Assembly (NCBI GenBank): GCA_021811405.1
Contig: JAJZOZ010000001.1
Location: forward strand, 5,103-69,102
Source: a bacterium
GTDB lineage: Bacteria > Elusimicrobiota > Elusimicrobia > Elusimicrobiales > UBA9959
Reading direction: 5' to 3'
DNA length: 64,000 nucleotides
This document shows, in pieces, positions 10,117 to 40,289 of the stretch. The stretch's first letter is position 1. Each line of letters opens with the position of its first letter. Made by a program: the position numbers and the translations under genes. The notes under the pieces were generated by a model that saw nothing but the letters and a program-made list of their open reading frames with translations, made no database searches and was not told the DNA's origin.

Positions 10117-11217
10117 ATGTCCCATATAAGGAACACGCAGAAGAACTCCGTCACGGGCAAATTGATGGGGCGCCTCCGGCTTTCCAGGGTGCTCAGCATC
10201 CCGGAGAAGGAGTTCTCCGCGTTCATAGCCGAGATAGAGGGCGACGACCTTTTCGGGGCGCTGGCCCGGCCGGCGCGGACTTCCGAGAAGGTCGTTTCGT
10301 ACAAGAGGTTCCCGCGCGGGACCTGGGCCAGGCAGGTGCAGTTCAACGAGGGGGTTTTCGCGGAAAGGCCTTCCATGGGGGTGCACGAGTTCCTGGCCGG
10401 CCGCGAGGATATCCTGCCCCTGTTGCGGCGCGTCGGAGAGAAGAGCTTCCTGGAGGATTTCCTCTACAGGGAGACTTCCCGCGGCCTCGAGGAGACCGCC
10501 GGCGCCCTGGGGCTGACCCTGGACGAGGCCGGCAGGATCATGGACTTCGTTAACGAGTTCCATCTCAAGCGGGAGATAGAGGGCGGCGGCGCTCCCGCCG
10601 CTTTGCCGGACGCTCTCAAGGAGCGCGGAGCCGACACGCCGGTGGCCCAGATCTACGCGGAAGGCGGGAACATAACCCTGTCCTACCTCTCCCTTTCTTC
10701 CGCCCGGGGCCGCTACGAGATAGATTATGCGCGGCTTAAGGCGCTGGAAAGGACGCTTCCGACGGAAAGGAAAAAGCGTCTCCGCGGCTTGATAGGCAAG
10801 ATGGAGCTGGCCAATATGCGCAAGGGCGTTCTCCACAATATCCTGCTGCAGCTGATAGACTGCCAGCATAAATACCTGATCACCGAGGAGGAGGACGACA
10901 TAAAGCCGGTCTCGCAGCGCGAGATAGCCCGTACGCTGGCGATAAATTCCGGGGTGTTGAACCGCATCGTTTCGGGCAAATCCCTCGCGCTGGCGTCGGG
11001 GCGCGCGGTGCCGATGGGCTCGCTGTTCCTTTCCCGGAAGGACTGGATGAAGGCGGCGCTGGGCAGGCTGCTGGCCGAGCGCGGCGGCGAGTCCCCCGCG
11101 GACGGGGAGCTGGCCGCTCTCCTGCGCGAAAGGACCGGCGTCCGGGTCTCCCGCCGCTCGGTGAACGATTACCGCAGGGAGATAGCCGGGAAACTGCCGG
11201 GGAAGAGGGTCCGCTGA
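10117..11217 (+). CDS. Short, divergent sigma-54 (RpoN)-like factor (~366 aa)
   Basis: The C-terminal region aligns by eye to the sigma-54 DNA-binding domain. IKPVSQREIARTLAINSGVLNRIVSGKSLALASGRAVPMGSLF matches the [42 protein letters not shown] region. The RpoN-box-like VSRRSVNDYRREI matches ARRTVAKYRE. The N-terminus keeps only a remnant of region I (LRLSRVLSIPEKEFSAFIAEIEGDDLF). The start is uncertain (ATG 10117 versus 10012). Confidence 0.65.
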   Translation: MSHIRNTQKNSVTGKLMGRLRLSRVLSIPEKEFSAFIAEIEGDDLFGALARPARTSEKVVSYKRFPRGTWARQVQFNEGVFAERPSMGVHEFLAGREDILPLLRRVGEKSFLEDFLYRETSRGLEETAGALGLTLDEAGRIMDFVNEFHLKREIEGGGAPAALPDALKERGADTPVAQIYAEGGNITLSYLSLSSARGRYEIDYARLKALERTLPTERKKRLRGLIGKMELANMRKGVLHNILLQLIDCQHKYLITEEEDDIKPVSQREIARTLAINSGVLNRIVSGKSLALASGRAVPMGSLFLSRKDWMKAALGRLLAERGGESPADGELAALLRERTGVRVSRRSVNDYRREIAGKLPGKRVR

Positions 11218-11218
11218 T

Positions 11219-12676
11219 ATGGCCGACAAGACCTCAAGATGCAGCTCGCCGTACTGTTTCGACAGGCTCGGCGTGAGGATAATACTGAGCCTCGTCGCCT
11301 GCATAGCGCTCACCAGCGTCGCGGGGCTGTTCCGGGACCTGCGGCATAACAGGCGCTATATCCGCCACCGCGAGGGCGCCAAGGCCTCGTCGCAGGCGGC
11401 GGTGCTGCGCGCGTATCTCGAGCACGAGATGTTCGAGAGCGGCCATGACGGCACCAGGATAGCGCTGGAAGCCGTCAGGGGGCAGCCCAACCTGGAGGAC
11501 CTGCTCATACTGGACTCCAAACGCAAGGTCGTGCGCGCGCTGGACAGGAAGATGGAGGGGCGCACGGTGCCGTCCCCGTCCGCGGACGGCTGGGACGGAG
11601 AGTTCATCCGCATGGATTTCCCGATAAAGGCCAAGAAGGCCTGCTACCGCTGCCACGGCAGGGACAAGCAGCTGCTCGGGTACTTCGAGTTCGTGGTCTC
11701 CACCGTGGAGGCCTACGCCGACCTGAAGCGCTGGCAGCTCTCGCACATCCTGGCGGAGAGCGTCTCCCTCGCCGTCATCTGCGTGCTGGTCATATTCATC
11801 ATAGCGACCATGCTCAACCGCCCTTTGTCGGCCCTTTCGGCGGCCATGGCCAAGGCCGGCGGAGGGGATTACTCCGTGCGCGTTCCGGAGAACGTTTCCG
11901 GGGAGATGGGGGAGCTGGCCAGGCAGTTCAATTCCATGGCCGGGAAGCTGGAGGAGAACCGCGCGGAACTTGAGCGGCTTCACCGGGAGAGCATCTCGCA
12001 CATGGACAGGCTGGTCTCGCTCGGCGAGCTGGCGGCCAGCCTGGCCCACGAGATACGCAACCCGCTCGCCGGCATCGCGGCCGCCATACAGGTGCTGCAG
12101 CGCGACCTGCCCGCGGAGGACCGCCGCTCCTTCGTCCTTACCGAGGTGCTCAGGCAGGTGGCCCGGCTGAACAAGACGGTGGACAATCTGCTGAGCTATG
12201 CCCGGCCGGCGGCGCCGGTGATGTCCAGCGTGTCCCTGCCCGAGACCGCGGCCCGCGTGCTGTCCATCGTGGAGCCGCAGCTCAGGAAGCAGAACGTCTC
12301 GCTGGAAACGGACTGGAGCGGTCCCGTCGGCGCGGTGACGGCCGACCAGGGGCAGATGGAGCAGATACTGCTGAACCTGTGCCTCAATTCCCTGCAGGCG
12401 ATGCCCGCGGGGGGCAGGCTGCGGGTGGGCGTGAGGCCTTCGGACGACGGCTCCGCCGCGGTCCTGGAGGTGTCCGACACCGGCGTCGGGATCCCGGCCG
12501 ACAAGCTGTCCTCCATCTTCAAGCCTTTCTTCACCACCCGCGCCAAGGGCACCGGCCTCGGCCTGGCCATCGTGAAGAAGATAATAGAGTCCCACGGAGG
12601 AAGGATAGAGGTCTTCAGCGAGGAAGGCAAGGGCGCGCGTTTCATGGTGACCCTGCCTTCCGGGCCGGCGGCCTGA
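11219..12676 (+). CDS. Membrane sensor histidine kinase (HAMP-HisKA-HATPase) with a CXXCH haem-c motif in the periplasmic loop
   Basis: Two TM segments flank a ~130-aa loop containing KACYRCHGRD (nt 11642-11656). A HAMP region follows. H-box SLAHEIRNPLAGI. G-boxes DTGVGIP and GTGLGLAIV. Confidence 0.85.
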   Translation: MADKTSRCSSPYCFDRLGVRIILSLVACIALTSVAGLFRDLRHNRRYIRHREGAKASSQAAVLRAYLEHEMFESGHDGTRIALEAVRGQPNLEDLLILDSKRKVVRALDRKMEGRTVPSPSADGWDGEFIRMDFPIKAKKACYRCHGRDKQLLGYFEFVVSTVEAYADLKRWQLSHILAESVSLAVICVLVIFIIATMLNRPLSALSAAMAKAGGGDYSVRVPENVSGEMGELARQFNSMAGKLEENRAELERLHRESISHMDRLVSLGELAASLAHEIRNPLAGIAAAIQVLQRDLPAEDRRSFVLTEVLRQVARLNKTVDNLLSYARPAAPVMSSVSLPETAARVLSIVEPQLRKQNVSLETDWSGPVGAVTADQGQMEQILLNLCLNSLQAMPAGGRLRVGVRPSDDGSAAVLEVSDTGVGIPADKLSSIFKPFFTTRAKGTGLGLAIVKKIIESHGGRIEVFSEEGKGARFMVTLPSGPAA

Positions 12677-12679: not shown

Positions 12680-14059
12680 ATGAAAAAAAGAGTGCTTGTA
12701 GTCGACGACGAGGACCTTATCCGCTGGTCGCTCAAGGACGAGCTGACGCGGGAGGGGTATACCGTGCTGAGCGTGGGCACGGCGGCCGAGGCCATTGAGC
12801 AGCTTTCCCGGGGCGGCGTGGACGTCACCATCTCCGACATCAATCTGGGCGACGGCAGCGGCCTGGACATCCTCAGGTACGCCAGGGAGAACCTGCCGTC
12901 CATGCCGGTGGTGCTGATGACGGCCTACGGCGACGTGAACGGCGCTGTGGACGCGATGCGCAGCGGCGCGGCCCACTACATCTCCAAGCCCTTCGACCTG
13001 TCAGTGCTGCGCATGGAGCTGGAAAAGGTGTGCGAGACCAGCAGCCTCCGGGACCAGGTGCTCGACACGCAGGAGCGGCGCCGGCGCCGCTACAACTTCG
13101 GCTCCATAATAACCGGCGACGAGGGCATGAAGCGCGTTATCTCCGAGGCGGTCATGATGGCGGCCAATCCTTCCGCCACCGTGCTGATACAGGGCGAAAG
13201 CGGCACCGGCAAGGACCTGATGGCGCGGGCGCTGCATTACGAAAGCCCGAGGGCGGGCAAGCCGTTCCTCGAGATAAGCTGCACGGCCATCCCGGAGAAC
13301 CTGCTGGAGAGCGAGCTGTTCGGCTACGAGAAGGGGGCCTTCACGGACGCCAAAGGGCAGAAGAAGGGCTTCTTCGACACCGCCGACGGCGGCACCGTGT
13401 TCCTCAACGAGATAGGCCACATGCCGCTGACCCTGCAGGCCAAGCTGCTGCGGGTGATAGAGGACAAGGTGTTCATGCGGCTGGGCGGCACCGAGGAGAC
13501 CGCCTGCGACGTGCGCATCATAGCGGCCACCAACGAGGACCTGCAGGAGGCCGTCAGGAAGGGCGGCTTCAGGGGGGACCTGTATTTCAGGCTTAACGTC
13601 CTGTCCGTCAGCCTGCCGCCGCTCAGGGAGCGCAAGGGGGACATACTGCCCCTGGCCGGGCATTTCCTGGCCCGCTTCAGCGGGGAGATGCGCAAGGACG
13701 TCCCGGTCCTTTCGGAGGAGGCGCAGGCCGTGATGACGGCCTATCGCTGGCCCGGCAACATCAGGGAGCTGCGCAACGTGATGGAGCGGGTGATGATACT
13801 CGGCGCGGGCAGGGAGATAGCCGGCGTATGGATGCGGGAACAGATAGGAAAGACCTCCGGCCTGGGCGCCGCCCCGTCCGGAGAGGTCTGCTTCAGGCTG
13901 CCGCCGGAGGGGATCTCGCTGGAAGCTGTAGAGAAGGACTTCATCAGGCAGGCCCTGGAATCTGCCGGCGGCAACCAGGTGAAAGCGGCGCGCCTCCTGG
14001 GCATCAGCCGGGACGCCTTGCGCTACCGGCTGGAAAAGCACGGGCTGCGCTATTCCTGA
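12680..14059 (+). CDS. Sigma-54-dependent response regulator (NtrC family enhancer-binding protein)
   Basis: Receiver domain (VLVVDDE..DINLGDGSG). AAA+ Walker A GESGTGKD. GAFTGA-type loop EKGAFTDA. The motifs ESELFGYE and RELRN. C-terminal Fis-type HTH (AARLLGISRDALRYRLEKHG). Confidence 0.9.
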   Translation: MKKRVLVVDDEDLIRWSLKDELTREGYTVLSVGTAAEAIEQLSRGGVDVTISDINLGDGSGLDILRYARENLPSMPVVLMTAYGDVNGAVDAMRSGAAHYISKPFDLSVLRMELEKVCETSSLRDQVLDTQERRRRRYNFGSIITGDEGMKRVISEAVMMAANPSATVLIQGESGTGKDLMARALHYESPRAGKPFLEISCTAIPENLLESELFGYEKGAFTDAKGQKKGFFDTADGGTVFLNEIGHMPLTLQAKLLRVIEDKVFMRLGGTEETACDVRIIAATNEDLQEAVRKGGFRGDLYFRLNVLSVSLPPLRERKGDILPLAGHFLARFSGEMRKDVPVLSEEAQAVMTAYRWPGNIRELRNVMERVMILGAGREIAGVWMREQIGKTSGLGAAPSGEVCFRLPPEGISLEAVEKDFIRQALESAGGNQVKAARLLGISRDALRYRLEKHGLRYS

Positions 14060-14078: not shown

Positions 14079-14094
14079 TGGCAGGGTTGCTGCG
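14079..14094 (+). promoter_or_regulatory. Candidate sigma-54 (-24/-12) promoter upstream of the 15-haem cytochrome operon
   Basis: TGGCAGGGTTGCTGCG has GG and GC with correct 12-nt register (consensus TGGCAC-N5-TTGCA). It lies 45 nt upstream of ATG 14139, directly after the EBP gene. Confidence 0.6.
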
Positions 14095-14138: not shown

Positions 14139-15452
14139 ATGCGTATCCAGCGTTATATCCCGATCATGCTCCTGCTGTGCGCCGCCGCGCGCGGCCGGGC
14201 GGCCGCGGCGCCGGTTTCACCTGACGTTATAACCACTACGCCCGCCTGCGTGGAGTGCCATAAGAAGGTGGTCTCGTCCAAGTTCACGCACGGTCCGGTC
14301 GGAGTGAAAATGTGCAGGGTGTGCCACTCGGACGAGAAACCGGCACAGGACCCCGCGAAGCATCATGTCTTCTCGTTCCCGAAGCCGCAGCCGGAACTGT
14401 GCCTGGAATGCCACGTGGACGTGCGCGAGAGCCTCAGGTCCGGCAAGATGACGCACGGCGCCATCGAGGCCGGCGGCTGCACTTCCTGCCACGATCCGCA
14501 CGGCTCCGGCCAGAAGTTCTTCCTGCGCGGGGAGAACATGGACGCGCTCTGTTCCAACTGCCACGGGAAAAAGACCGGCGGCGCCGTGGTCCACCGGCCG
14601 GTGAAGGCCTCGTGCATGCTGTGCCACGAGCCGCACGCGTCCGGCGGCAGCCACCTTCTCAAGACCGACACCCCGGAACTCTGCCTGGGCTGCCACCAGC
14701 AGGTGAAGACGGAGCTTTCCGGCAAGTACGTCCACGGCCCGGTGCAGACCGGCTGCCAGACCTGCCATGACCCGCACAGCGCGCCCAAGCCGTACCTGCT
14801 GAAGTCCGACGCGAAGAAGGAGCTCTGCCTGGGCTGCCACGCGGACATGGCCAAGGCGCTGAAGAACGCCAAGCGCCCGCACCCCGCCGTGGAATCGGCC
14901 GGCTGCATCGGCTGCCACAGCCCCCACGCGTCGGGGCAGCCGAAGATGCTGCTGAAGCCGATGAAGGAGCTCTGCCTGGGCTGCCACGCGGACAAGGCCG
15001 CGGAGCTGGGCAGCAAGTTCCTGCACGGCCCGGTGCGCCTGAACGAATGCCAGGGCTGCCATGACCCGCACGGGGCGGACAACCCCAACATCCTCAAGGA
15101 ATATTTCCCGGAGGACTTCTACAACTCGTACAAGGAAGGCCTGTACGCCCTGTGCTTCGAATGCCACGAGAAGAACATCGCCAGCGAACCCAGGACCGCC
15201 AAGCTGACCAACTTCCGCAACGGCGACGTGAACCTGCATTACGTCCACGTCCATTCCGAGAAGGGACGCAGCTGCAAAGCGTGCCACCAGGTGCACGGCG
15301 GCCGCCAGGAGAAGCACGTCCGGGAGAGCGTGCCGTTCGGCTCCTGGCCGCTGCCCATCGTGTACAGGAAGACCGCCACCGGCGGCAGCTGCAACGTCGG
15401 CTGCCATAACCCCAAGTCCTACGACCGCGTGAAAGAGGTGGAGAACAAATGA
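14139..15452 (+). CDS. Multihaem c-type cytochrome, 14 CXXCH plus 1 CXXXCH (437 aa)
   Basis: Signal peptide MRIQRYIPIMLLLCAAARGRAAAAP. Motifs counted in the translation: CVECH, CRVCH, CLECH, CTSCH, CSNCH, CMLCH, CLGCH, CQTCH, CLGCH, CIGCH, CLGCH, CQGCH, CFECH, CKACH and CNVGCH. Confidence 0.9.
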   Translation: MRIQRYIPIMLLLCAAARGRAAAAPVSPDVITTTPACVECHKKVVSSKFTHGPVGVKMCRVCHSDEKPAQDPAKHHVFSFPKPQPELCLECHVDVRESLRSGKMTHGAIEAGGCTSCHDPHGSGQKFFLRGENMDALCSNCHGKKTGGAVVHRPVKASCMLCHEPHASGGSHLLKTDTPELCLGCHQQVKTELSGKYVHGPVQTGCQTCHDPHSAPKPYLLKSDAKKELCLGCHADMAKALKNAKRPHPAVESAGCIGCHSPHASGQPKMLLKPMKELCLGCHADKAAELGSKFLHGPVRLNECQGCHDPHGADNPNILKEYFPEDFYNSYKEGLYALCFECHEKNIASEPRTAKLTNFRNGDVNLHYVHVHSEKGRSCKACHQVHGGRQEKHVRESVPFGSWPLPIVYRKTATGGSCNVGCHNPKSYDRVKEVENK

Positions 15453-16417
15453 GATACATCGTAAGAGCGTTCGTCGTGCTGGCCTTCGGCCTGCCGTTCT
15501 GCGCGGGCGTCTCCCGCTGCGAAGCCAACCCGCTGCGGAACCTGGAACTGGGGGCCGCCGCTTTCCCGTTCTCCCTGCCGGACACGAACGGGAACGCGGT
15601 AAGCCTGGACAAGTTCAAGGGGCGGCCCGTGGTGGTCTGTTACTGGCGTGAAGGCCAGTTCTACTCCAAAAAGATGCTCGAGGTCATGACGCGCGCGCAG
15701 GCCAAGTTCGGCGGCAAGGGCGTGGAGTTCCTCTCCATCACAAGGACCGCGGGCGCCGAAGCCCCAAAGGTGTCCACGATGCCTTTCCCGGTGCTGCTGG
15801 ACGACCAGGAGAAGGTCTACGGGGATTACGGCCTGTTCATACTGCCTACCACGTTCGTGCTGGACGGCGGGCACCGCCTCAAGGCTTATTTTTCCAGCTA
15901 CCAGGAGGAGTCCGGACCGGAGCTGGACAAGATACTGTCGGAGATGCTCGGCCTAAAGGCGACGCCGGCGCCCGCCCCGCGCTACGCGGCGGTGCAGGGC
16001 ATGGCTGACCCGGAGCTCAACCTCGCCCGCGAGCTGCTGAAGGAGGGCAAGGCTGCCGAGGCCCTGCCGCTGCTGGAGAAAGGGCTGCGCGGCGCGGCGT
16101 CAGGCGACGCCGCGGAGCTGAAGCTGCTGTCCGCCCAGGCGCTGATGCAGCTGTCGCGCCTGGAGGAGGCCAAAGCGAGGCTGGAGGGCTGCCTGAAGGA
16201 CGATCCCGCCTCGCACGAGGCGCAGCTGCTGCTGGGCAGGACCCTTTTCCTGATGGGCCGCTACGAGCCCGCGGAAGAGGCCCTCAAAAAGTCCATGGGC
16301 CTGAACCCGCATTCCGAAAAGGCGCATTATTACCTCGGGGAGCTGTATGAGAAGACAGGCCGCAAAGATCTGGCGCTGGCCGAATACCGCGCGGCGCTTG
16401 AGCGTATATACAGGTAG
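15449..16417 (+). CDS. Exported thioredoxin-fold (TlpA/ResA-like) domain lacking the CXXC motif, fused to TPR repeats
   Basis: Signal peptide. The redoxin-like stretch FSLPDTNGNAVSLDKFKGRPVVVCYWREGQFYS stands where WxxWCxxC is expected. The C-terminal half is TPR-like (AEALPLLEKGL.., AHYYLGELYEKTGRKDLALAEYRAALE). ATGA overlap with the upstream gene. Confidence 0.65.
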   Translation: MRYIVRAFVVLAFGLPFCAGVSRCEANPLRNLELGAAAFPFSLPDTNGNAVSLDKFKGRPVVVCYWREGQFYSKKMLEVMTRAQAKFGGKGVEFLSITRTAGAEAPKVSTMPFPVLLDDQEKVYGDYGLFILPTTFVLDGGHRLKAYFSSYQEESGPELDKILSEMLGLKATPAPAPRYAAVQGMADPELNLARELLKEGKAAEALPLLEKGLRGAASGDAAELKLLSAQALMQLSRLEEAKARLEGCLKDDPASHEAQLLLGRTLFLMGRYEPAEEALKKSMGLNPHSEKAHYYLGELYEKTGRKDLALAEYRAALERIYR

Positions 16418-18248: not shown

Positions 18249-18307
18249 CATTGTTTGCTATGATATTACGGAAATTCCGTGCATCTGTGATCTGGAGCCG
18301 ACCTTCC

Positions 18308-30687: not shown

Positions 30688-30730
30688 TGCCGTGTGCCGT
30701 AACGAAAAAACATACTGACCGGCCGGTTCA

Positions 30731-33077: not shown

Positions 33078-34981
33078 GCGCGCTTTCCAGGACCATACTT
33101 TTCCCGGCGGCCTTGCTGGCCTTCGCCGCGGCCCCGTGCCGCGCAGCCTCCATAGTGAACTCCAAGCACGACATGTCCTCGCTGTCGGCCACCACCGGGC
33201 CCAAGTCGCTCTCCACCAGCGAGCGCTGCGTTTTCTGCCATACTCCGCACAGGGCCGGCGTGAACGTGCCGCTCTGGAACCAGTCGGTCACCACCCAGAC
33301 CTTCACTTTCTATTCCTCCAACTACGTCAACACCTACCTGGGCATGGCCGTCCCGACCATGGCGAAGCTGGCCGGCTCCCGCACCAAGCTCTGCCTCTCC
33401 TGCCACGACGGCATGACCGCGCCCGGCAGCGTGTTCAATCTGGGCGGGACCGGCGGCCGGCTGAACATGAGCGGTCCGCTGGGCTCCGCTTCCACCCTCG
33501 GCGTGAACCTGGCCGACGACCACCCGGTCCTTTACGGCGTAAACCCGGGCGCGGGTCCCCCGGTCCAGCCGGGGACCGACCCCGAGATACAGCTGCCGCC
33601 CGCCGGGGACAAGGTAAAGGTGTACGGCGCGGAGAACCTGGTGGAATGCACCTCCTGCCATAACCCGCACGATAACCAATACGGCCATTTCCTGGTCAAG
33701 TCCAACGCCAACGGCGCGCTCTGCACCACCTGCCATTACAAGACCGGCTTCTCCGCCAGCGCGCATAAGCTGTCGGCCGTCTCCTATACTCCGCCCGGGG
33801 AGAGCCCCACCACCGTGGGCGAGTGGGCCTGCCGCGACTGCCACCGTTCGCACGGGGCGTCCTCGGTGCAGGCTTACCTGCTGAGCGGCGCGGAAGAGGC
33901 CACTTGTTACGCCTGCCACGGCAATCCGCCGCTTACCGGGGCCAGGAACCTGAAACTTACCGTAGGCAAAGCCTACAAGCACCCGGTTGAGACCGTCTCC
34001 GGCAGGCACAAGGACCCGGAGACGGATGGCGCCAATTTTACGTATTCGCCGCTCAACAACAGGCATGCGGAATGCCAGGACTGCCATAATCCGCATCAGG
34101 CCAAGTCCGGCACGCATGTCGCCCCGACCAACGTCATTTCCAGCGTCCTGCTGGGCCAGTGGGGCGTGGAACCGGCCTACGGCACGGCCAGCTGGACGCA
34201 GCCCACCAGCTATTCCAGGAAGGTATTCGCCGACACGCTGAACTACAGGGAATACCAGCTCTGTCTCAAATGCCATTCCTCGTACGCGTTCGGGACTACG
34301 CCCCCGCCCGGAATAACGGACCAGTCGATAGAACTGAGCATAAATAACCGCGGCGCCCATCCGGTGATACGGGGGCTTAACAGCCAGACCGGCAGCACCA
34401 GCCCCAAGCCGCTGGCGGCCAACCAGCTTTCCAGCCCCTGGTCCGCCGCGCGCGGAACGCAGACCATGTACTGCTCGGACTGCCACGGCCCGGACAGCAC
34501 AACGGATCCCAAGGGTCCGCACGGTTCCGCCGGAGAACACATCTTGTCCGGGCCGAACGTCTACTGGCCCAGGAAACCCGGGGGGGCGCTCTACACTCTG
34601 GACGACTTCCCCGGGGGGAACAACTCCGGCGCCAACACCTCGGCTGGCCTGTTCTGCCTGAACTGCCACCCGATGTACTCCGGAACCAGTTTCTTCAACA
34701 ACGTCCACATGGAGCATAATCAGAAGAATCAGGGCGTTACTCATGCCTGCGTCGGCTGCCATCAGGTGATCCCGCACGGCTCAAAACGCTCCCGGCTTAT
34801 AGGCTATGCCTCCGACCAGGCGCCTTACAACTATAACGGGACGGGGGCGTTCGATAAGCTGGTCCTGTCCGGGTTCAAGAAGGCGACCAGCCCTACCGGT
34901 TATGTGAAAACGAACTGCTACGCTCCTGTTTCCGGTTGCAGCAGCGAGCACGGGATCAACTCGGGCGGATATGATCCATGA
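33074..34981 (+). CDS. 11-haem c-type cytochrome (635 aa), cassette B
   Basis: Motifs CVFCH, CLSCH, CTSCH, CTTCH, CRDCH, CYACH, CQDCH, CLKCH, CSDCH, CLNCH and CVGCH. Collinear with 24487-26367. Confidence 0.9.
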   Translation: MSALSRTILFPAALLAFAAAPCRAASIVNSKHDMSSLSATTGPKSLSTSERCVFCHTPHRAGVNVPLWNQSVTTQTFTFYSSNYVNTYLGMAVPTMAKLAGSRTKLCLSCHDGMTAPGSVFNLGGTGGRLNMSGPLGSASTLGVNLADDHPVLYGVNPGAGPPVQPGTDPEIQLPPAGDKVKVYGAENLVECTSCHNPHDNQYGHFLVKSNANGALCTTCHYKTGFSASAHKLSAVSYTPPGESPTTVGEWACRDCHRSHGASSVQAYLLSGAEEATCYACHGNPPLTGARNLKLTVGKAYKHPVETVSGRHKDPETDGANFTYSPLNNRHAECQDCHNPHQAKSGTHVAPTNVISSVLLGQWGVEPAYGTASWTQPTSYSRKVFADTLNYREYQLCLKCHSSYAFGTTPPPGITDQSIELSINNRGAHPVIRGLNSQTGSTSPKPLAANQLSSPWSAARGTQTMYCSDCHGPDSTTDPKGPHGSAGEHILSGPNVYWPRKPGGALYTLDDFPGGNNSGANTSAGLFCLNCHPMYSGTSFFNNVHMEHNQKNQGVTHACVGCHQVIPHGSKRSRLIGYASDQAPYNYNGTGAFDKLVLSGFKKATSPTGYVKTNCYAPVSGCSSEHGINSGGYDP

Positions 34982-36273
34982 GAAAGCTGCTGGTCTCGCC
35001 CCGCACGGCGCTGGCGCTGATGGGGGCGATAGCGGCGGCCTGCTGCGCGGCTTCCTTCGTGCCGCAGATAGCCGACAGCAGCCCGGCCGTTATCGGGGCT
35101 TGGAGGAGTGCCAGCCCGCTGACTTACCGGCTGGCCGGGGTCCTGCGGCTTGACAGGATATATACTTCTCCATGGTTCCTGCTGCTGGTAGCCGCGGCCG
35201 GCGTGGTGCTTGCCTATTCGGTCCGGCTGCAGTTCCGCGGCTGCCTTTCCGGCCTGGCCGGGAGCGGCGCGCCGGCGGTCCAGTTCCCGGGCCAGGGGCG
35301 CTTGTCCGCGGCGCTGTCAGCCAGAGGGTATTCCATGCTTCCGGCATCGGCAGGAGAGGCCCGTTTCGCGGCCAACAGGCCTGGTCGGTGGGGCTCGCCT
35401 GTCTTTCATCTCGGGCTGCTGCTGGTGATAGTCGCCGCCTTCCTGACGTTCGCGTTCCAGCAGAGAGGCTTCGTGCAGCTGATAGAGGGCGAGGTCTTCG
35501 ACGGCGCCGCCGCCGATTTCCTTACCGTGAACAATGGGCCGCTGGCCGGCCGCTTTTTGGTGCCGTTCAGCCTGCGCATGAACAAACTGGAGCAGGCATA
35601 CTGGGGGAACGGACAACCCAGGGATTTCGGCAGCCGGGTGGACTTCCTGGAGGAAAGCGGCAGGCCGGCGCCGGCTCTGATCTCGGTAAACAACCCCTTC
35701 CGCCGGCGCGGCGTGACGGTGTACCAGTCGCCCTATTACGGCTACAGCGTGTCGCTGGCGCTGAAAAGACCGGCCGGCGCGGAAACGCTGACGCATTTCC
35801 TGCTGGACAGGGCCGCCGTCCCTTCGAGGCCTGCGGTCGGTGGGGCGGATTTCCCCGGTACGGGCTATCTTTTCTGGCTCGAATTCCTGCCGGACGCGGC
35901 CGGACGGTCGTTCTTCGTGAAGGACCCGGTACTGAAGGCCCGCGTGACGGAAGGCGGCCGCGTGGTCTTCGACGGCCCCGTTCCGATGGACGGCACGGTG
36001 CGGGTCGGAGCGGATTCCCTGCGCGTGGCGGCCGTACGCGGCTGGAGCGGGCTCGTGTTCGTCCGCGACAGGTGGCAGGGGCTGGCGTACGCGGGACTGG
36101 GGCTTTGCGTCCTGGGGGCCGCGCTGATGTTCCTGCTGCCGTATCGCGAGCTGGCCGTGGCGCTTCCGGACGCCGGCGAAGCTGTGGTCCGGGCGGTTTC
36201 GGGCAGGGAGATGGACCTGCTGCGTGAAGAGGCGCGCGACATAGAGGCTGAACTTAAAAAATGGAAGGAATGA
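34978..36273 (+). CDS. ResB/CcsB-like cytochrome c biogenesis protein (System II)
   Basis: Membrane topology of an N-terminal TM pair, a large soluble loop and a C-terminal TM. It sits directly upstream of, and is coupled to, ccsA. The assignment rests mainly on context and architecture. Confidence 0.6.
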   Translation: MRKLLVSPRTALALMGAIAAACCAASFVPQIADSSPAVIGAWRSASPLTYRLAGVLRLDRIYTSPWFLLLVAAAGVVLAYSVRLQFRGCLSGLAGSGAPAVQFPGQGRLSAALSARGYSMLPASAGEARFAANRPGRWGSPVFHLGLLLVIVAAFLTFAFQQRGFVQLIEGEVFDGAAADFLTVNNGPLAGRFLVPFSLRMNKLEQAYWGNGQPRDFGSRVDFLEESGRPAPALISVNNPFRRRGVTVYQSPYYGYSVSLALKRPAGAETLTHFLLDRAAVPSRPAVGGADFPGTGYLFWLEFLPDAAGRSFFVKDPVLKARVTEGGRVVFDGPVPMDGTVRVGADSLRVAAVRGWSGLVFVRDRWQGLAYAGLGLCVLGAALMFLLPYRELAVALPDAGEAVVRAVSGREMDLLREEARDIEAELKKWKE

Positions 36274-37085
36274 CCCCTCTTAAGGCCGGGATACTGCTGC
36301 ACTGGGCCGCGGTGACGCTCTATATACTCTCTACGGTGGCCTACGCGGCCGCAGCGACTTTTTCCCGTGAGAGCCTGCTGAAGAAGGGCTGGTGGCTGGC
36401 GCTGGCCGGACTTCTGCCGCACAGCGCCGCCCTGGCGCTGCGCTGGTACGCCACCGGGCACGGCCCGTACATGGCGAAATACGAGGTGTTCTCTTCCAAC
36501 GCCTGGGTGGCCGTACTCATGTTCCTGGTATTCTCCAAAAAGATACCGCGCCTCAGGGCGGCCGGTTACGTGGTGCTGCCCGCTTCCTTCCTGATGATGA
36601 CGGCAGGCTTGTTCACAAGCCCGGAGCTGCGTTTTCTGCCGCCGTCGCTCAGGAGCTTCTGGCTGGTGCTGCATACGGTGTTCGCCAAACTGGCCGTCGG
36701 AGGCATACTCATCGCGGTGGGGGCCTCCATCCTGTACCTGGTCAGGGAAAGGAAGGGCGGCGCGGAGGCGGCCTCCCTCCCGGCGCTGGACGACTATGCC
36801 GGCCGTTTCGCCGGCTTCGGCTTCATTTTCTGGACCATCATGACGGCCGCCGGCGCCATCTGGGCCAATGAGACCTGGGGCCGCTACTGGGGCTGGGACC
36901 CCATAGAGACCTGGTCCCTCATCACCTGGCTGCTTTTCGGCTCCTACCTGCACGGCCGCCGCTCCCTGGGCTGGCGCGGCGGGAAGGCCGCCTGGGTATT
37001 GCTCGGCTGCTTTGTCCTGTCGCTGGCCACGGTGTTCGTCATCCCGTTCGTCTTCGACACGCTCCACGGGGAGTACTTCAGATGA
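36261..37085 (+). CDS. ccsA: Cytochrome c-type biogenesis protein CcsA/ResC (System II haem handling)
   Basis: WWD-type haem-handling motif WGRYWGWDPIETWSLITWL. Polytopic membrane protein with conserved His residues. Confidence 0.85.
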   Translation: MEGMTPLKAGILLHWAAVTLYILSTVAYAAAATFSRESLLKKGWWLALAGLLPHSAALALRWYATGHGPYMAKYEVFSSNAWVAVLMFLVFSKKIPRLRAAGYVVLPASFLMMTAGLFTSPELRFLPPSLRSFWLVLHTVFAKLAVGGILIAVGASILYLVRERKGGAEAASLPALDDYAGRFAGFGFIFWTIMTAAGAIWANETWGRYWGWDPIETWSLITWLLFGSYLHGRRSLGWRGGKAAWVLLGCFVLSLATVFVIPFVFDTLHGEYFR

Positions 37086-38593
37086 AGGCCAAGGTCCTGC
37101 TGATGACGCCGCCCTATCACTGCGGCGTGGTGGAAGCCGCCGGCACCTGGGTGCCGCTGGCGCTGGCGTCCGTGGCCGGCGGCCTCTCCCGCGCCGGCTA
37201 CGAGGTGGAGATCTACGACGCGATGGCCAAGTACTCGGACTGGGCCGCTATCGAGGAGAAGCTCAGGTCCTCGAACCCCGACTTCGTGGGGACCACGGCC
37301 TTCACGGCCACGGTCAACGACGCCGTCAGGGCGCTGGCGCTGGCCAAGCGCGTCAAGCCGGGCGTGGTAACGTTGCTGGGCGGCATCCATCCCAACTTCC
37401 AGTGGAAGGAGCTCCTCGAGGCGGAGGATTCGCCGGTGGATTACGTGGTCAGGGGGGAGGGCGAGGTGACGGCGCCCCGCCTGCTGGACGCCATAACCTG
37501 CGGGGAGCCGCCGGAGCGCGTGCGGGGGATAGCGCTGCGCGACGCTTCCGGCAGGGCCTTCGCCACGGCATCCAGGCCGCTGATAGAGGACCTCGACGCC
37601 CACCCGGCCGCGTGGGAGCTGCTCGACTGGAAGGACTACACTTTCTATCCCCGGCCCGGCTCCGTCTCGGGCCTGATCTCCTCGTCGCGCGGCTGCACCG
37701 AGGCCTGCTCCTTCTGCAGCCAGCAGAAGTTCTGGTCCCAGAGCTGGAGGGCGAAGTCCCCGGAGGCCTTCGTCGGCGAGATAGAGCTGCTGCGCAAGGA
37801 GTTCGGCGTCTCCATAGCGATGGTCGCCGACGAGACGCCCACCAAGGACCGCGCGCGCTGGCGCAGGATACTGGACCTGCTGATAGCCAGGAAGCTCGAC
37901 TTCGAGCTGATGCTGGAGACCCGCGTGGACGATATCCTGCGCGACCGCGACTGGCTGGACGACTACCGGCGGGCGGGCATAATGCACATTTACGTGGGGG
38001 TGGAATCCGGCTCGCAGGAGACGCTGGATACCTTCAAGAAGAACCTTAAGACGGAGCAGTCCAAAGAGGCCATAAAGCTGATAAACGAGGCCGGGATAAT
38101 CAGCGAAACGGCCTTCGTGCTGGGCATGCCGGGGGAGACGCCGGAGTCCATACGGCGCACCACGGACCTGGCCCTGGAGTACGGTCCCGACATGGCCTTC
38201 TTCATGGCCATAGCCCCGTGGCCGTATTCCGACATCTACAGGGAGCTCAAGCCCCTGGTGGAGACGGACGACTACTCGCTCTACAACCTGGTGCGCGCCG
38301 TGGTCAAGCCCAGGGCGATGACCCGCGCCGAGGTGGAGGCGGAGCTGGCCTCCGCCTTCAGGAAATTCTACATGCACCGGCTCAAGGGGCTGGAGAAAAT
38401 GCCGCCCTTCAAGCGGGAGTACATGCTTGCCGTGACCAGGCTGCTGGCCTCGCACTCCTACCTCAAGGAGCAGATGAAGGGGATGGGGGGCTCGGCCGGC
38501 ATGCCGGAGGAGGTGCTGCGCGTTCTCGGCGCGGCCGGCGTCGCGCTCACGGAGGCGGCGCGGCCGGGCTCCGCGGATAAAAAGCATGCGTGA
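37082..38593 (+). CDS. B12-binding-domain radical SAM enzyme (class B rSAM)
   Basis: N-terminal cobalamin-binding-like domain (VLLMTPP..DFVGTTAFT..LLGGIHPN). The CX3CX2C cluster motif is SSRGCTEACSFCSQQ. ATGA overlaps at both ends embed it in the operon. Confidence 0.8.
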   Translation: MKAKVLLMTPPYHCGVVEAAGTWVPLALASVAGGLSRAGYEVEIYDAMAKYSDWAAIEEKLRSSNPDFVGTTAFTATVNDAVRALALAKRVKPGVVTLLGGIHPNFQWKELLEAEDSPVDYVVRGEGEVTAPRLLDAITCGEPPERVRGIALRDASGRAFATASRPLIEDLDAHPAAWELLDWKDYTFYPRPGSVSGLISSSRGCTEACSFCSQQKFWSQSWRAKSPEAFVGEIELLRKEFGVSIAMVADETPTKDRARWRRILDLLIARKLDFELMLETRVDDILRDRDWLDDYRRAGIMHIYVGVESGSQETLDTFKKNLKTEQSKEAIKLINEAGIISETAFVLGMPGETPESIRRTTDLALEYGPDMAFFMAIAPWPYSDIYRELKPLVETDDYSLYNLVRAVVKPRAMTRAEVEAELASAFRKFYMHRLKGLEKMPPFKREYMLAVTRLLASHSYLKEQMKGMGGSAGMPEEVLRVLGAAGVALTEAARPGSADKKHA

Positions 38594-40289
38594 GCCGCGT
38601 CCCGGCAGGCCGTGGCGCGCCGGCGTCCTGGCGGCCTCCGCTTCATTGGCCGTCTGCGCCGCTTCCGCCAGCGGCGGGCAATACCATTATTCCGGCAAGC
38701 TGGACTGGAGGTTCGAGAGCGTCGCGGTAAGGACCCCGGCCGGAAAGACCACCACCTCCATGGGTTCCCATGTCTACAGCCTGAATCTGGACGGGCCTCT
38801 GGGAACGCCGCTCATCGGCAACGGAAACCTGGGGCTGACCCTGCAGGGGGGGAAGAGCCTCTCCAACGTGGTGGCCGCGCGCAAGTCCTCGCAGGAACTG
38901 ACCGGCTATAACTTCGGGGCCACGCTGCTCCCCCCTCCGCTTAGAAGGTTCATTAATCTCTCCCCCAACTTCAGCAGGAGCGTCAATAAGACGTCCTGGG
39001 GCGACGGCGCGCTGCATAACATAACCGACGCCGCTTCCGGGGTCACGGCCGGGCTGACGCTGCCGAAACTGCCGACCTATTCCGTCACCTATCAGAAACT
39101 GAGGCGCACCGACGACAGCAGCTACGCTTCCGACCAGGAGACGGACATCATGGACGAGCGCGCGCTTTATATGAAAGGCGTGCTGAGGGCGGAATACCAG
39201 CGCCGCCGGCAGACGACGCGCGATCTGCTGGGAAGGTCACCGGATAACGAGGTGGACAGCGTGAACTCCAGCGTCGACCTGAACGACGCGGATTTCAACA
39301 GGCTGGGCCTGCGCTCCTACTTCATGCGGGTCTCGTACGCCGGCCAGACCAATCGGTCCGTAGGCAGCACCAGTCAAAGAGGGGTTTCCTCGCTTTTCAA
39401 TCTCACCTCCAGGACGGTCCGTTCCGGGGGGGTGAAATCCTATCTCGGATACACGCAGGGCCTTAACCGCGATCTGGTCTCGAAGGCGCGCACGTCCAAT
39501 TCCGATGTAACCGCCTACAGCTCCTATTCCGGTTCCAGCGGCACCATAAACAACCAGCTGCAGTTCAGGAATATCGACGGACCCGCGGGAGCGGACCGTT
39601 CCGTCAGCGACAACCTGAACTCGGAGGTCACGCTGTTCAACGGCCTGGCCGGCCACAGGCTGCAGCTGGCAGAGACTCTCTCGTGGGGGGCGCAGGGCGC
39701 CCGCGGCACCGACCTGATAGAACAGCGCGTTTCGGTATATCCCGCCGCGAAATACGACTTCTACGTGGACCAGCGCTACTCTGCCGCACGTTCCGCGGCC
39801 GCCGGGGCGCTGAACCAGGGGCTTGGCTGGGGCGGCGGCGTCAACTGGAGGCCGGCCTATTACGCCCGCGGGGACATGAGCTATCAGGAAGACCTCGGTT
39901 CCGACCTCGCGAAGGGCAGCAAGACCAGGTCGGATACGGTCACCATGAAGTTCTCCGCCGAGCCCGCGGTCGGCCTCTCGGCCACTCTTATCTGCGCCTT
40001 TTATTCCAACAGCGCCGAGCTCGTCAGGTCCAGGAACGGCACTCTTTCGCTGGAAACCGCCTATTCCGTGACCCCGGCCCTGACGTTCTCCGGCAGCCTG
40101 TACCGGACGGACACGCGGCAGCGTTTCCGGCCGGACGGAGGGCGGGCCAGGACGGTCTCTTTGGATTACAGCGCCAGGATGGTCTACAACATCGGCCGTA
40201 CCACGCTTTCCCTGCTGTACGAATCCAGGGAAGCCTCAGTCTTCAACGCGTATTCGCGCTTCGGCGCTTTCCTTACGCGGACCATTTAA
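38586..40289 (+). CDS. Large outer-membrane beta-barrel protein (567 aa), cassette B; paralog of 26435-28108
   Basis: Signal peptide. The N-terminal region is alignable with the cassette A barrel (YSGKLDWRFESVAVRTPAG..YSLNLDGPLG versus ASGRLGWSYDDVMVRTPEG..YNLNLRGPFG). The same strand-like composition is seen throughout. Confidence 0.7.
   Translation: MREPRPGRPWRAGVLAASASLAVCAASASGGQYHYSGKLDWRFESVAVRTPAGKTTTSMGSHVYSLNLDGPLGTPLIGNGNLGLTLQGGKSLSNVVAARKSSQELTGYNFGATLLPPPLRRFINLSPNFSRSVNKTSWGDGALHNITDAASGVTAGLTLPKLPTYSVTYQKLRRTDDSSYASDQETDIMDERALYMKGVLRAEYQRRRQTTRDLLGRSPDNEVDSVNSSVDLNDADFNRLGLRSYFMRVSYAGQTNRSVGSTSQRGVSSLFNLTSRTVRSGGVKSYLGYTQGLNRDLVSKARTSNSDVTAYSSYSGSSGTINNQLQFRNIDGPAGADRSVSDNLNSEVTLFNGLAGHRLQLAETLSWGAQGARGTDLIEQRVSVYPAAKYDFYVDQRYSAARSAAAGALNQGLGWGGGVNWRPAYYARGDMSYQEDLGSDLAKGSKTRSDTVTMKFSAEPAVGLSATLICAFYSNSAELVRSRNGTLSLETAYSVTPALTFSGSLYRTDTRQRFRPDGGRARTVSLDYSARMVYNIGRTTLSLLYESREASVFNAYSRFGAFLTRTI

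Follow-up and report, generated by a model that had tools for sequence, protein, structure and literature searches.

The uet (undecahaem electron transfer) cluster of Ca. Tenderia electrophaga encodes the tetrahaem cytochrome UetA, the barrel UetC, the NHL proteins UetH and UetI and the undecahaem cytochrome UetJ, followed by ccsAB and a TPR gene, and has also been reported from Gallionella and Leptothrix (bioRxiv 10.1101/2022.05.06.490989; PMC10734462; PMC13386937). The omcE cluster of Geobacter and Desulfuromonas consists of two multihaem cytochromes, two beta-propeller lipoproteins, OmcE and a large beta-barrel, with resB/ccsB adjoining (bioRxiv 10.1101/2025.10.22.684050). In Desulfovibrio ferrophilus IS5, for which NHL propellers beside outer-membrane cytochromes were described in 2018, the clusters DFE_0448-0451 and DFE_0461-0465 (FeGenie markers) are induced when the electron donor limits (PMC5815863). 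Expression and electrochemical data from Tenderia and D. ferrophilus support this kind of system (bioRxiv 10.1101/2022.05.06.490989; PMC5815863). However, D. ferrophilus mutants deleted for similar clusters still reduced Fe(III) oxide (PMC9769857), so any physiological role of the kind is tentative.

Here we analysed a stretch of 64,000 nucleotides (the window) from a metagenome-assembled genome of an uncultured member of the Elusimicrobia. A 30-kb block at 10117-40289 holds a self-contained gene set, and its boundaries are sound, since housekeeping genes (guaA, guaB, dnaB, alr and mla) lie on either side. The block is probably a complete Uet/OmcE-type porin-cytochrome module with two full cassettes and a degenerate third, and a role in moving electrons across the outer membrane or extracellularly is the best-supported reading. 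A preliminary description had guessed at such a role, naming three findings that would speak against it (barrels of a known porin or usher family, large cytochromes that are known enzymes, a gene set not conserved elsewhere), none of which was obtained. Every gene it listed was recovered in place, the sigma-54-like factor only in part. Its view of an undescribed system does not hold, as the block belongs to the described "undecahaem" Uet clusters, which are relatives of the OmcE nanowire cluster in Geobacter; the kind is known from at least 14 bacterial phyla. New are the host phylum Elusimicrobia and the tripled and rearranged cassettes, together with the individual features pointed out below.

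A six-frame CXXCH scan revealed eight cytochrome ORFs with 64 haem motifs in total (15, 5, 11, 3, 4, 11, 4, 11), bearing out the earlier count.
14139..15452, + strand, 15-haem cytochrome, predicted periplasmic (14 CXXCH and one CX3CH)
16347..16928, + strand, pentahaem cytochrome lipoprotein (5 CXXCH; Paired_CXXCH_1; LAGC lipobox)
18215..19297, + strand, compact 11-haem cytochrome, predicted periplasmic (11 CXXCH; six Paired_CXXCH_1 stretches)
20539..21102 (ORF start 20479/20539), + strand, degenerate OmcE-like 3-haem cytochrome by alignment (3 CXXCH)
22730..23365 (ORF start 22652/22730), + strand, OmcE/UetA-like tetrahaem cytochrome a, predicted extracellular (4 CXXCH)
24487..26367, + strand, undecahaem cytochrome a, UetJ-like by architecture (11 CXXCH)
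28422..28536, + strand, remnant copy of the 3-haem gene's 3' end (115 nt with 90% identity), not a functional part
31233..31892 (ORF start 31119/31233), + strand, OmcE/UetA-like tetrahaem cytochrome b (4 CXXCH)
33074..34981, + strand, undecahaem cytochrome b, UetJ-like by architecture (11 CXXCH)

Alignment of tetrahaem a with OmcE revealed conservation of the four CXXCH motifs and the four distal His residues, and the protein matches PDB 9YUQ (E 4.5e-12) and 7TFS (E 6.5e-9). Tetrahaem b is 55% identical to tetrahaem a and matches G. sulfurreducens OmcE with E 6e-19. Undecahaem a, which has more than 5000 homologues, is composed of an OmcE-like tetrahaem N-domain (residues ~1-220) followed by a 7-haem C-domain that has no relative of solved structure. 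The N-domain matches 7TFS with E 3.6e-29 as a single sequence and 1.4e-52 as a family profile, and a Foldseek search with undecahaem a gave 7TFS as the sole meaningful match (E 2e-6). Undecahaem b is 67% identical to undecahaem a and matches OmcE with E 5e-32. By sequence, OmcE, the subunit of the Geobacter nanowire (PDB 7TFS), is homologous to the two tetrahaems and to the N-terminal ~220 residues of each undecahaem, with 25-27% identity for the small tetrahaems versus 36% for the undecahaem N-domain. The OmcE-like N-terminal domain on the undecahaem appears to be new, the link being absent from the cluster literature compared. In the alignment, the 3-haem cytochrome no longer has haem motif 1, nor two of the distal His residues, and its gene has a sigma-70-like promoter at 20479-20508 (11/12 in the promoter scan). 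A 2-motif haem ORF remnant lies at 28330-28527.

The 15-haem cytochrome has, as far as sequence comparison goes, a clear counterpart in G. sulfurreducens: the 370-aa protein (cyt370) that comes first among the multihaem cytochromes of the omcE locus (L086), to which it is 42% identical (E 9e-79). It is also DmsE/MtrA-like (TIGR03508, 162.7 bits, under the 192.2 cut-off). Most of the related cassettes have a pentahaem gene adjoining that of the large beta protein.

Four exported NHL propellers, as listed in the preliminary description, were found by Pfam search.
19382..20428, + strand, exported NHL beta-propeller 1 (NHL E 1e-36)
21451..22512, + strand, NHL beta-propeller 2 (NHL E 7e-31; E 2e-59 against NHL361 of L086)
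23438..24490, + strand, NHL beta-propeller 3 (NHL domain), directly 5' of the undecahaem a gene
32055..33077, + strand, NHL beta-propeller 4 (NHL E 2e-27), 53% identical to NHL3

All four share 32-36% identity with NHL361 of the Geobacter omcE locus (E 4e-46 to 2e-59), NHL1 with 36% (E 6e-58), and NHL1 has an N-terminal FPxPPDxPRIxYL motif in common with the Geobacter NHL protein. NHL propellers as cassette members, and the pairing of a tetrahaem with an 11-haem cytochrome, had been considered to fall outside known models; the uet cluster has exactly these parts, and NHL proteins also occur in the D. ferrophilus and omcE clusters.

Two large proteins complete the cassettes.
26435..28108, + strand, predicted outer-membrane beta-barrel A (signal peptide, about 24 predicted strands, C-terminal Phe)
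38586..40289, + strand, predicted outer-membrane beta-barrel B, paralogue of barrel A

These ~560-aa proteins are paralogous as proposed (33% identity, E 3e-80). Neither matches any Pfam or NCBIfam family, MtrB/PioB included, nor any known porin or usher family. The AlphaFold2 model of barrel A is all-beta with ~24 strands at low confidence (pLDDT 40), so that the earlier term "beta-barrel" is likely rather than established. Weak Foldseek matches of the model are mostly large outer-membrane barrels. The family of barrel A, with 43 representatives in 1.84 billion proteins, is small, lineage-specific and new. Among these representatives is a 696-aa protein from the widespread family of ~700-aa cassette proteins, which the profile of barrel A reaches with E 3e-6 library-wide (hhalign probability 63% against that family), and no sequence link was found to the 752-aa protein of the Geobacter omcE locus.

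Like the published uet cluster, which it matches in architecture, the block combines a tetrahaem cytochrome, NHL propellers (two in uet), a large beta-barrel, System II ccsA/ccsB and a TPR protein, and both are proposed porin-cytochrome conduits. Its undecahaems are likened to UetJ by published architecture, with exactly 11 CXXCH and no other annotated domain. However, the window lacks the trihaem c7 proteins (UetD/E/G), cupredoxin (UetF) and PPIase (UetB), and adds periplasmic cytochromes with 15, 11 and 5 haems, a kinase and NtrC activator of its own, sigma-54 promoters and a BchE-like radical SAM gene. Its cassettes are duplicated in a different host phylum, Elusimicrobia, and its ~560-aa barrel follows the undecahaem gene, whereas the uet barrel precedes it. 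With the omcE cluster (PDB 7TFS, 9YUQ) the block shares OmcE homologues, the NHL proteins and first multihaem cytochrome at the above identities, adjacent resB/ccsB, a large beta protein with no Pfam match beside the OmcE-like gene, and a purine-metabolism gene as neighbour. In contrast, an undecahaem bearing an OmcE-like N-domain is lacking in Geobacter, glycosylation genes are absent from the window, the NHL proteins of the window carry no lipobox and are not lipoproteins, and its barrel has 557 aa versus 752 aa, with homology undetected.

The D. ferrophilus clusters DFE_0448-0451 and DFE_0461-0465 are alike in gene content, with NHL genes interleaved with predicted periplasmic and extracellular multihaem cytochromes, but they have no recognised porin, and their periplasmic haem counts are 12 and 14 (PMC5815863). 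MtrCAB of Shewanella and OmaB-OmbB-OmcB/Ext of Geobacter follow the same logic of periplasmic multihaem cytochrome, large outer-membrane barrel and surface multihaem cytochrome, and the 15-haem protein resembles the DmsE/MtrA family. Unlike these systems, the window has no MtrB/PioB-family barrel, its DmsE/MtrC model scores are all below the cut-offs, and it has NHL propellers and OmcE-like surface cytochromes, both of which they lack.

Cassettes of this kind were found at 78 genome loci spanning at least 14 phyla, with the set of NHL protein, cytochrome and large beta protein conserved. An OmcE-domain cytochrome with 11 CXXCH is present in 62 of the 78, the NHL gene lies directly upstream of the undecahaem gene in 61, and the order large unannotated ORF, NHL, undecahaem is seen in 52. 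Gene order is alike in Ignavibacteriae, Elusimicrobia and close relatives, and homologues of the window's cassettes are found in MAGs of Gammaproteobacteria and Burkholderiales (L033, L051, L054, L068, L072, L083).

Genes for haem supply and cytochrome maturation, together with a TPR lipoprotein and a B12-radical SAM gene, all named in the preliminary description, were confirmed by Pfam and NCBIfam searches.
15449..16417, + strand, ResA/TlpA-like thiol-disulfide oxidoreductase fused to TPR (AhpC-TSA/Redoxin and TPR)
16934..17698, - strand, TPR lipoprotein (TPR_12 E 4.5e-52; LSAC lipobox)
28564..29841, - strand, HemA (glutamyl-tRNA reductase), haem supply (GlutR_N, Shikimate_DH and GlutR_dimer domains)
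29863..30759, - strand, second CcsA/CcsB-like haem-handling membrane protein (Cytochrom_C_asm E 1.6e-27; TIGR03144 123.7 bits, below cut-off)
34978..36273, + strand, ResB/CcsB-like System II component (PF05140 E 2e-34)
36261..37085, + strand, CcsA System II haem lyase subunit (PF01578 E 4e-36)
37082..38593, + strand, BchE-like B12-binding radical SAM enzyme (TIGR02026 384.6 bits, below the 481 cut-off)

The redoxin-TPR protein, with a weak ResA match and counterparts in 11 related loci, is likely an apocytochrome-reducing System II accessory. hemA is present in 12 related loci. CcsA is 33% identical to Geobacter ccsB, and ResB also matches L086. The ResB-CcsA-radical SAM-barrel block is conserved in locus L088, and in P0258 the radical SAM is fused to the barrel; this conserved BchE-like gene in the cassette surroundings is new.

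The regulatory genes and promoters are as follows.
10117..11217, + strand, protein with only a sigma-54 DNA-binding domain (RpoN box SRRSVNDYRREI)
11219..12676, + strand, sensor histidine kinase (HAMP, HisKA and HATPase_c domains)
12680..14059, + strand, NtrC-type sigma-54 enhancer-binding response regulator (Response_reg, Sigma54_activat E 1e-65, HTH_8)
14079..14093, + strand, sigma-54-type -24/-12 promoter P1 (TGGCAGGGTTGCTGC), 60 nt 5' of the 15-haem gene
17817..17833, matches on both strands, sigma-54-type promoter P2, palindromic
17853..18227, + strand, CheY-like single-domain receiver (Response_reg E 2.8e-28)
22626..22640, + strand, sigma-54-type promoter P3 (motif match)
31138..31152, + strand, sigma-54-type promoter P4 (motif match)

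The motif TGGCAG-N4-GCTGC has 5 matches at four sites, versus 0.07 expected, and all four sit upstream of an operon start, which supports the earlier term "sigma-54-wired". Being palindromic and flanked by divergent genes, P2 may be active in both directions. Domain searches likewise recovered the kinase, NtrC-type activator and CheY-like receiver already noted. The kinase has one CXXCH (CYRCH) in a presumably periplasmic loop between two hydrophobic segments. Of 85 loci, about 20-25 have the kinase-NtrC pair adjoining the cassette, and the receiver has the same position in related loci L005 and L007. The supposed sigma-54-like factor retains the DNA-binding domain with its RpoN box (Sigma54_DBD, 33 bits, residues 268-391 only; TIGR02395 over model positions 292-425 only), but Pfam and NCBIfam gave no activator-interacting or core-binding domain. 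Such a protein with the DNA-binding domain alone is new, and its gene has its own sigma-70-like promoter at 10081-10110 in the promoter scan.

Based on these genes and promoters, we propose the following working. The haem-motif kinase would sense redox state and phosphorylate the NtrC-type activator, which would fire the four sigma-54 promoters. HemA, the two CcsA-type proteins, ResB and the ResA-like redoxin-TPR protein would supply and attach roughly 64 haems. Electrons may be relayed through the periplasm by the 15-haem protein (homologous to a Geobacter omcE-locus cytochrome), the 11-haem protein and the 5-haem lipoprotein, and would cross the outer membrane through the large beta-barrel to the OmcE-like surface cytochromes. 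The tetrahaem may polymerise like OmcE, and in the undecahaem, OmcE-like by homology in its N-domain, the seven-haem C-domain would lengthen the haem chain. The NHL propellers, one encoded beside each surface cytochrome gene, might be assembly or docking factors. Electrons could flow either way, to minerals or electrodes or inwards from Fe(II) or cathodes; the sequence cannot tell which.

A plain MtrCAB/Pcc-type conduit, in which a periplasmic cytochrome is threaded in the barrel and monomeric tetrahaem and undecahaem cytochromes sit at the surface with no filament, is a sub-variant of the proposed module, not an exclusive alternative. The recurring order of periplasmic cytochrome, large beta protein and surface cytochrome fits this arrangement, as does the DmsE/MtrA-like 15-haem protein, and it is the model proposed by the Uet authors (bioRxiv 10.1101/2022.05.06.490989). 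We regard it as tenable though the less probable form, since the surface cytochromes are homologous to a protein that is known solely as a subunit of filaments and retain the N-terminal His, the presumed inter-subunit ligand, and the barrels have no MtrB/PioB-family match. It is quite improbable that the cytochromes instead form a periplasmic or outer-membrane-associated redox enzyme or electron store for a soluble substrate (nitrogen or sulfur oxyanions). Sub-threshold likeness to NrfB/NrfH/NrfA-type cytochromes and the lack of an inner-membrane quinol-oxidising partner within the window would agree with such an enzyme, but the six-frame scan of the block found no CXXCK, other catalytic haem signatures are missing as well, the best PDB enzyme match has E 0.02, and the conserved His residues suffice for bis-His ligation of all 11 haems. 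In addition, the best homology matches come from an extracellular nanowire subunit and the partners encoded at its locus.

Partial decay or inactivity of the cluster is suggested by the gene remnant at 28422-28536 and by the missing motif 1 of the 3-haem gene. This seems even less probable, as every other ORF is intact, both full cassettes included. Moreover, an identical barrel A occurs on 14 contigs from several samples, in some together with its neighbours undecahaem a, hemA and the ccsA-like gene, and the dual-cassette layout is kept in relatives.

The G+C content of the window was 62-70%, with a single 2-kb bin at 59%. Because of this high G+C content, translation and family matches, not ORF length, were used to pick genes. 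A six-frame scan revealed eight ORFs with haem-binding motifs, carrying 15 (14 CXXCH and one CX3CH), 5, 11, 3, 4, 11, 4 and 11 of them, and the total of 64 agrees exactly with the preliminary description. A further fragment with two CXXCH motifs was found at 28330-28527. Pfam and NCBIfam searches also confirmed the other components named there: four NHL propellers (NHL1-4, starting at 19382, 21451, 23438 and 32055), the System II maturation genes ResB and CcsA, a second CcsA-like gene beside hemA on the minus strand, a ResA/TlpA-like redoxin with fused TPR repeats, a separate TPR lipoprotein, an NtrC-type activator, a CheY-like receiver, and a B12-binding radical SAM enzyme whose top match, BchE, scored 385 bits, below the cut-off of 481. 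The HAMP histidine kinase carries one CXXCH between two hydrophobic segments, in a loop that is presumably periplasmic. The genes flanking the cluster are housekeeping genes.

Features within and next to the cluster (coordinates, strand, description)
8512-9894, +, secreted clostripain-type (C11) peptidase, directly 5' of the cluster, with a terminator-like hairpin between
10117-11217, +, protein with the sigma-54 DNA-binding domain only, RpoN box, own sigma-70-like promoter
28422-28536, +, 115-nt remnant encoding two CXXCH, matching the 3-haem gene at its 3' end (20994-21108) with 90% identity
37082-38593, +, BchE-like B12 radical SAM gene, within the ResB-CcsA-radical SAM-barrel block
40459-43644, +, guaA and guaB (purine metabolism), directly 3' of the cluster

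OmcZ nanowires need a dedicated protease; any tie of the C11 peptidase to the present cluster would be speculative. Purine genes (purHDE) and resB/ccsB also adjoin the omcE cluster in Desulfuromonadia, and the proximity of purine genes common to that cluster and the window may be a coincidence.

Comparison with the omcE locus of Geobacter sulfurreducens, which encodes the nanowire subunit OmcE, revealed partners for most of the proteins compared. The genes of that locus run purHDE, ppcA, resB, ccsB, a 370-aa cytochrome (cyt370), a 330-aa cytochrome (cyt330), an NHL protein (NHL361), omcE, a 752-aa protein without any Pfam match, and glycosyltransferases.

BLASTP matches of window proteins in the G. 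sulfurreducens omcE locus
15-haem cytochrome vs cyt370: 42% identity, E 9e-79
NHL1-4 vs NHL361: 32-36% identity, E 4e-46 to 2e-59
Undecahaem N-domains vs OmcE: 36% identity, E about 2e-32
Tetrahaems vs OmcE: 25-27% identity, E 5e-14 to 6e-19
CcsA and ResB vs ccsB and resB: matched
Barrels vs 752-aa protein: no match

The 11- and 5-haem proteins of the window are likewise related to cyt330/cyt370. The window NHL proteins have no lipobox, whereas the NHL protein of the Geobacter omcE locus has one. According to the preprint in which 9YUQ was solved (bioRxiv 10.1101/2025.10.22.684050), a minimal omcE cluster adjoins resB/ccsB and comprises OmcE, a pair of multihaem cytochromes, a pair of beta-propeller lipoproteins and one large beta-barrel. 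Based on this description and the BLASTP partners, the window cluster is built from omcE-cluster parts: an OmcE-like tetrahaem, an adjacent NHL gene, further multihaem cytochromes and resB/ccsB.

The structural searches led to the same protein. Tetrahaem a (22730-23365) matched the OmcE bundle of D. soudanensis (PDB 9YUQ, E 4.5e-12) and the G. sulfurreducens nanowire (PDB 7TFS, E 6.5e-9), with no other meaningful match in the PDB. The two undecahaems (a, 24487-26367; b, 33074-34981) are proteins of 626 and 635 aa with exactly 11 CXXCH each, for which Pfam gave generic multihaem domains only. Residues ~20-220 of the undecahaem matched 7TFS and 9YUQ more strongly than the tetrahaem did (3.6e-29 and 7.6e-25, respectively), and a family profile of 72 members matched 7TFS at 1.4e-52, with nothing significant in the PDB for the remaining ~400 residues. 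An AlphaFold2 model of the undecahaem (pLDDT 70.5) found 7TFS only in a Foldseek search of the PDB (E 2e-6). Across the loci, the median score against Geobacter OmcE was 98 bits for the undecahaem N-domains and lower, at 69 bits, for the small tetrahaems.

Sequence alignment showed that the two tetrahaems and the N-domains of the two undecahaems keep all four CXXCH motifs and four distal histidines. One of these histidines lies 7-8 residues past the predicted signal-peptide cleavage site, with the spacing seen in OmcE, and is probably the inter-subunit ligand. The 3-haem paralogue (20539-21102) has lost the first haem motif and two conserved distal histidines. Close to its C-terminus, undecahaem a has two extra cysteines, C607 and C614, which are invariant in 72 homologues (consensus NCSxxxxCH) and might be joined in a disulfide or bind a twelfth haem at an atypical site.

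Two other assignments were considered for these proteins. Large multihaem cytochromes could be enzymes of the NrfA, HAO or OTR type; the six-frame scan found no CXXCK motif in the window, and the top PDB enzyme match of the large cytochromes had an E value of 0.02 over 90 residues. As for membership in the MtrCAB/Pcc conduits, which calls for a DmsE/MtrA-family decahaem above the model cut-off, TIGR03508 scored 162.7 (cut-off 192.2) and TIGR03507 scored 42.6 (cut-off 209.3); the barrels matched no known family in Pfam or NCBIfam, including MtrB/PioB and OmbB-type barrels. Both assignments were rejected, since the signatures are missing and the scores lie below threshold.

The two ~560-aa proteins (barrel A, 26435-28108; barrel B, 38586-40289) both carry signal peptides. 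They had been called paralogous outer-membrane barrels; the paralogy is clear (about 33-34% identity, E 3e-80), and the barrel fold is suggested for barrel A by an all-beta AlphaFold2 model with ~24 strands, of low confidence (pLDDT 40). Foldseek matches of this model, which is too poor for a fold search, were insignificant and mostly large or generic outer-membrane barrels. The Elusimicrobia barrels form a small separate family, with 43 representatives in 1.84 billion proteins, 22 of them at E < 1e-30. The related loci encode ~700-aa proteins that make up one family of 45 members. Comparison of the barrels with the single Geobacter 752-aa sequence by hhalign gave a probability of at most 1%, and neither the iterated HMMs built from the Elusimicrobia barrels nor those from an Ignavibacteria ~550-aa protein picked up members of other clades within the set of fetched loci. 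The Elusimicrobia profile did match the first ~180 residues of a 696-aa member of the ~700-aa family (E 3e-6 library-wide), and hhalign gave a probability of 63% for the barrel N-terminal region against that family. We read these matches as remote homology between the two families, which likely share a structural role.

The architecture of the window has a published counterpart. In Ca. Tenderia electrophaga, the undecahaem electron transfer (uet) cluster (ALP54622-ALP54629, ALP54908 and an unannotated UetJ) has genes for a tetrahaem (UetA), a PPIase (UetB), a 28-strand barrel (UetC), trihaem c7 cytochromes (UetD/E/G), a cupredoxin (UetF), NHL proteins (UetH/I) and an undecahaem (UetJ), followed by ccsA, ccsB and a TPR protein; its authors proposed a porin-cytochrome conduit for electron uptake, in which UetA or UetJ might polymerise (bioRxiv 10.1101/2022.05.06.490989). 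Uet was later reported in Gallionella and Leptothrix (PMC10734462; PMC13386937). The window shares with it an 11-CXXCH undecahaem without any other domain, a tetrahaem, NHL proteins, a large predicted barrel, ccsAB and TPR proteins. This likeness is one of published architecture, not of protein alignment, and the gene order differs in detail; the supplements of the Gallionellaceae paper contain no Uet sequences. No ORF in 10117-40289 encodes a Uet-like cupredoxin, PPIase or c7-only trihaem. NHL propellers among outer-membrane cytochromes had been described in D. ferrophilus in 2018 (PMC5815863), and Fe(III) oxide reduction was not abolished when these cytochromes were deleted (PMC9769857). Therefore, the claim of an undescribed system fails, as both the uet cluster and the D. 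ferrophilus NHL/cytochrome genes were already known, and the window cluster represents a known kind in well-preserved form, arguably as a variant, rather than a new system. The uet and omcE descriptions have stood apart: OmcE is not mentioned in the Tenderiales uet preprint (bioRxiv 10.1101/2022.05.06.490989) or the Leptothrix paper, nor Uet or its undecahaem in the OmcE-cluster preprint (bioRxiv 10.1101/2025.10.22.684050), and neither the uet nor the omcE cluster description names Elusimicrobia for such systems (bioRxiv 10.1101/2022.05.06.490989; 10.1101/2025.10.22.684050).

More than 5000 homologues of the 626-aa undecahaem were found at E < 1e-5, and Elusimicrobia, Bacteroidota and Ignavibacteriae have members that match over the full length at 40-78% identity. 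Three loci around distant members showed the same neighbourhood, including the kinase-NtrC-CheY genes and a ~550-aa protein without a Pfam match. An alignment of the OmcE domain was then searched against one genome per species, which confirmed 587 OmcE-domain stretches. The best 78 loci span at least 14 phyla: Planctomycetota, Verrucomicrobiota, Acidobacteriota, Nitrospirota, Bacteroidota, Desulfobacterota, Gamma- and Alphaproteobacteria, Myxococcota, Calditrichota, Fidelibacterota, Kiritimatiellia, Chlamydiota and Elusimicrobia. Of these 78 loci, 62 encode a cytochrome that has the OmcE domain and exactly 11 CXXCH, 61 have an NHL gene directly upstream of it, and 52 keep the order large ORF, NHL, undecahaem. 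When every ORF of 85 loci was searched with HMMs built from the window proteins, the OmcE domain was matched in 82 loci, NHL in 80, the seven-haem C-domain in 73 and a 15-haem-like cytochrome in 68. The co-occurrence of NHL, cytochrome and large protein is thus conserved far beyond the window. Gene maps revealed a recurrent cassette of tetrahaem, NHL, pentahaem, ~700-aa unannotated protein, NHL and undecahaem, often near a 13-haem cytochrome, redoxin-TPR, kinase-NtrC, hemA or ccsA/resB. Counterparts of UetD/E/G, UetF and UetB are mostly missing from this widespread cassette as well, and these appear to be specific to Tenderiales.

The full tetrahaem-NHL-barrel-NHL-undecahaem cassette was observed in a Chlamydiota MAG (L080) and in many Planctomycetota and Verrucomicrobiota loci (L013-L085). 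These phyla are not usually considered electroactive; the distribution hints at possible electroactivity in many members of the Planctomycetota, Verrucomicrobiota, Acidobacteriota and Bacteroidota. In six loci from Desulfobulbaceae/Desulforhopalus and Gammaproteobacteria (L031, L033, L063, L068, L072 and L075), very large cytochromes with 18-22 CXXCH adjoin the standard cassette, and these also match the OmcE-domain HMM.

The role first suggested for the cluster, outer-membrane or extracellular electron transfer, stands as the probable one, and places a full module of this type in Elusimicrobia. Electrons would pass from the predicted periplasmic cytochromes through the predicted barrel to OmcE-like surface cytochromes, which may form filaments, and the NHL proteins would act in assembly. 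Either direction of flow is possible, since clusters of this kind are found in metal reducers and in iron or cathode oxidisers. The main value of the window lies in the link between Uet and OmcE and in a candidate role for the undecahaem. The tetrahaem, NHL and periplasmic cytochrome parts of Uet conduits are homologous to those of OmcE nanowires, which joins the literature on iron and cathode oxidisers with that on metal reducers. The OmcE-cluster preprint asks for a nanowire end-piece, none having been found in Geobacter operons, and reports no OmcE-like protein with extra haems in OmcE operons (bioRxiv 10.1101/2025.10.22.684050). In contrast to those operons, the widespread cassette encodes such a protein, and the OmcE-like domain of the common ~630-aa undecahaem is a candidate for filament start, end or attachment. 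There is a small chance that the UetJ-type undecahaem is this missing end-piece, either an initiator or anchor at the barrel or a tip. Its N-domain would dock onto a polymer of the neighbouring tetrahaem through the kept N-terminal histidine and haem set, and its seven-haem C-domain would contact the barrel or a mineral. If so, the Uet "porin-cytochrome" and the OmcE "nanowire" would be a single ancient machinery, present in 14 phyla or more.

The cluster had also been described as wired to sigma-54. The canonical consensus TGGCAC-N5-TTGC gave no match with up to one mismatch. A relaxed scan revealed TGGCAG-N4-GCTGC, with the spacing of the canonical -24 GG and -12 GC elements, at four sites, each 36-104 nt 5' of the first gene of a same-strand run.

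Gene runs preceded by predicted sigma-54 sites (site position, genes)
14079: 15-haem, redoxin-TPR, 5-haem
17817: CheY, 11-haem, NHL1
22626: tetrahaem a, NHL3, undecahaem a, barrel A
31138: tetrahaem b (31233-31892), NHL4, undecahaem b, ResB, CcsA, radical SAM, barrel B

The exact motif occurs five times (four sites, one of them palindromic) against 0.07 expected. This excess and the placement before gene runs support the sigma-54 wiring. For the regulator genes and the 3-haem gene, the predicted promoters are sigma-70-like. The palindromic site (17817-17833) matches on both strands and separates the divergent TPR-lipoprotein and CheY genes, where it may serve as a bidirectional promoter. The exact motif is not conserved across the other loci, and only a few of them showed canonical -24/-12 sites when the scan was loosened. 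The supposed sigma-54-like factor proved to have the DNA-binding domain with its RpoN box and no activator-interacting or core-binding region. Its gene was absent from all fetched relatives by HMM search of the ORFs of 85 loci, and the protein might compete for the -24/-12 sites.

The window contains two full cassettes, with identities of 67% between the undecahaems, 55% between the tetrahaems and 53% between NHL3 and NHL4, together with the 3-haem gene as a degenerate third tetrahaem. The remnant at 28422-28536 points to past recombination or duplication between the cassettes. Both cassettes are kept in close relatives in a changed order. At NCBI, the window proteins are named after an Elusimicrobia MAG (locus tags M0025_121xx). 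Barrel A is identical on at least 14 contigs from several samples, and some of these contigs share undecahaem a, hemA and the CcsA-like gene with the window as well. As a guess, the BchE-like radical SAM enzyme modifies haem or a cytochrome. The block that contains its gene is also present in a close relative (L088, radical SAM gene at 3584-5047), one representative of the barrel family (P0258) is a radical SAM-barrel fusion of 1075 aa, and the gene also lies beside the undecahaem cassette in a Fidelibacterota MAG (L026).
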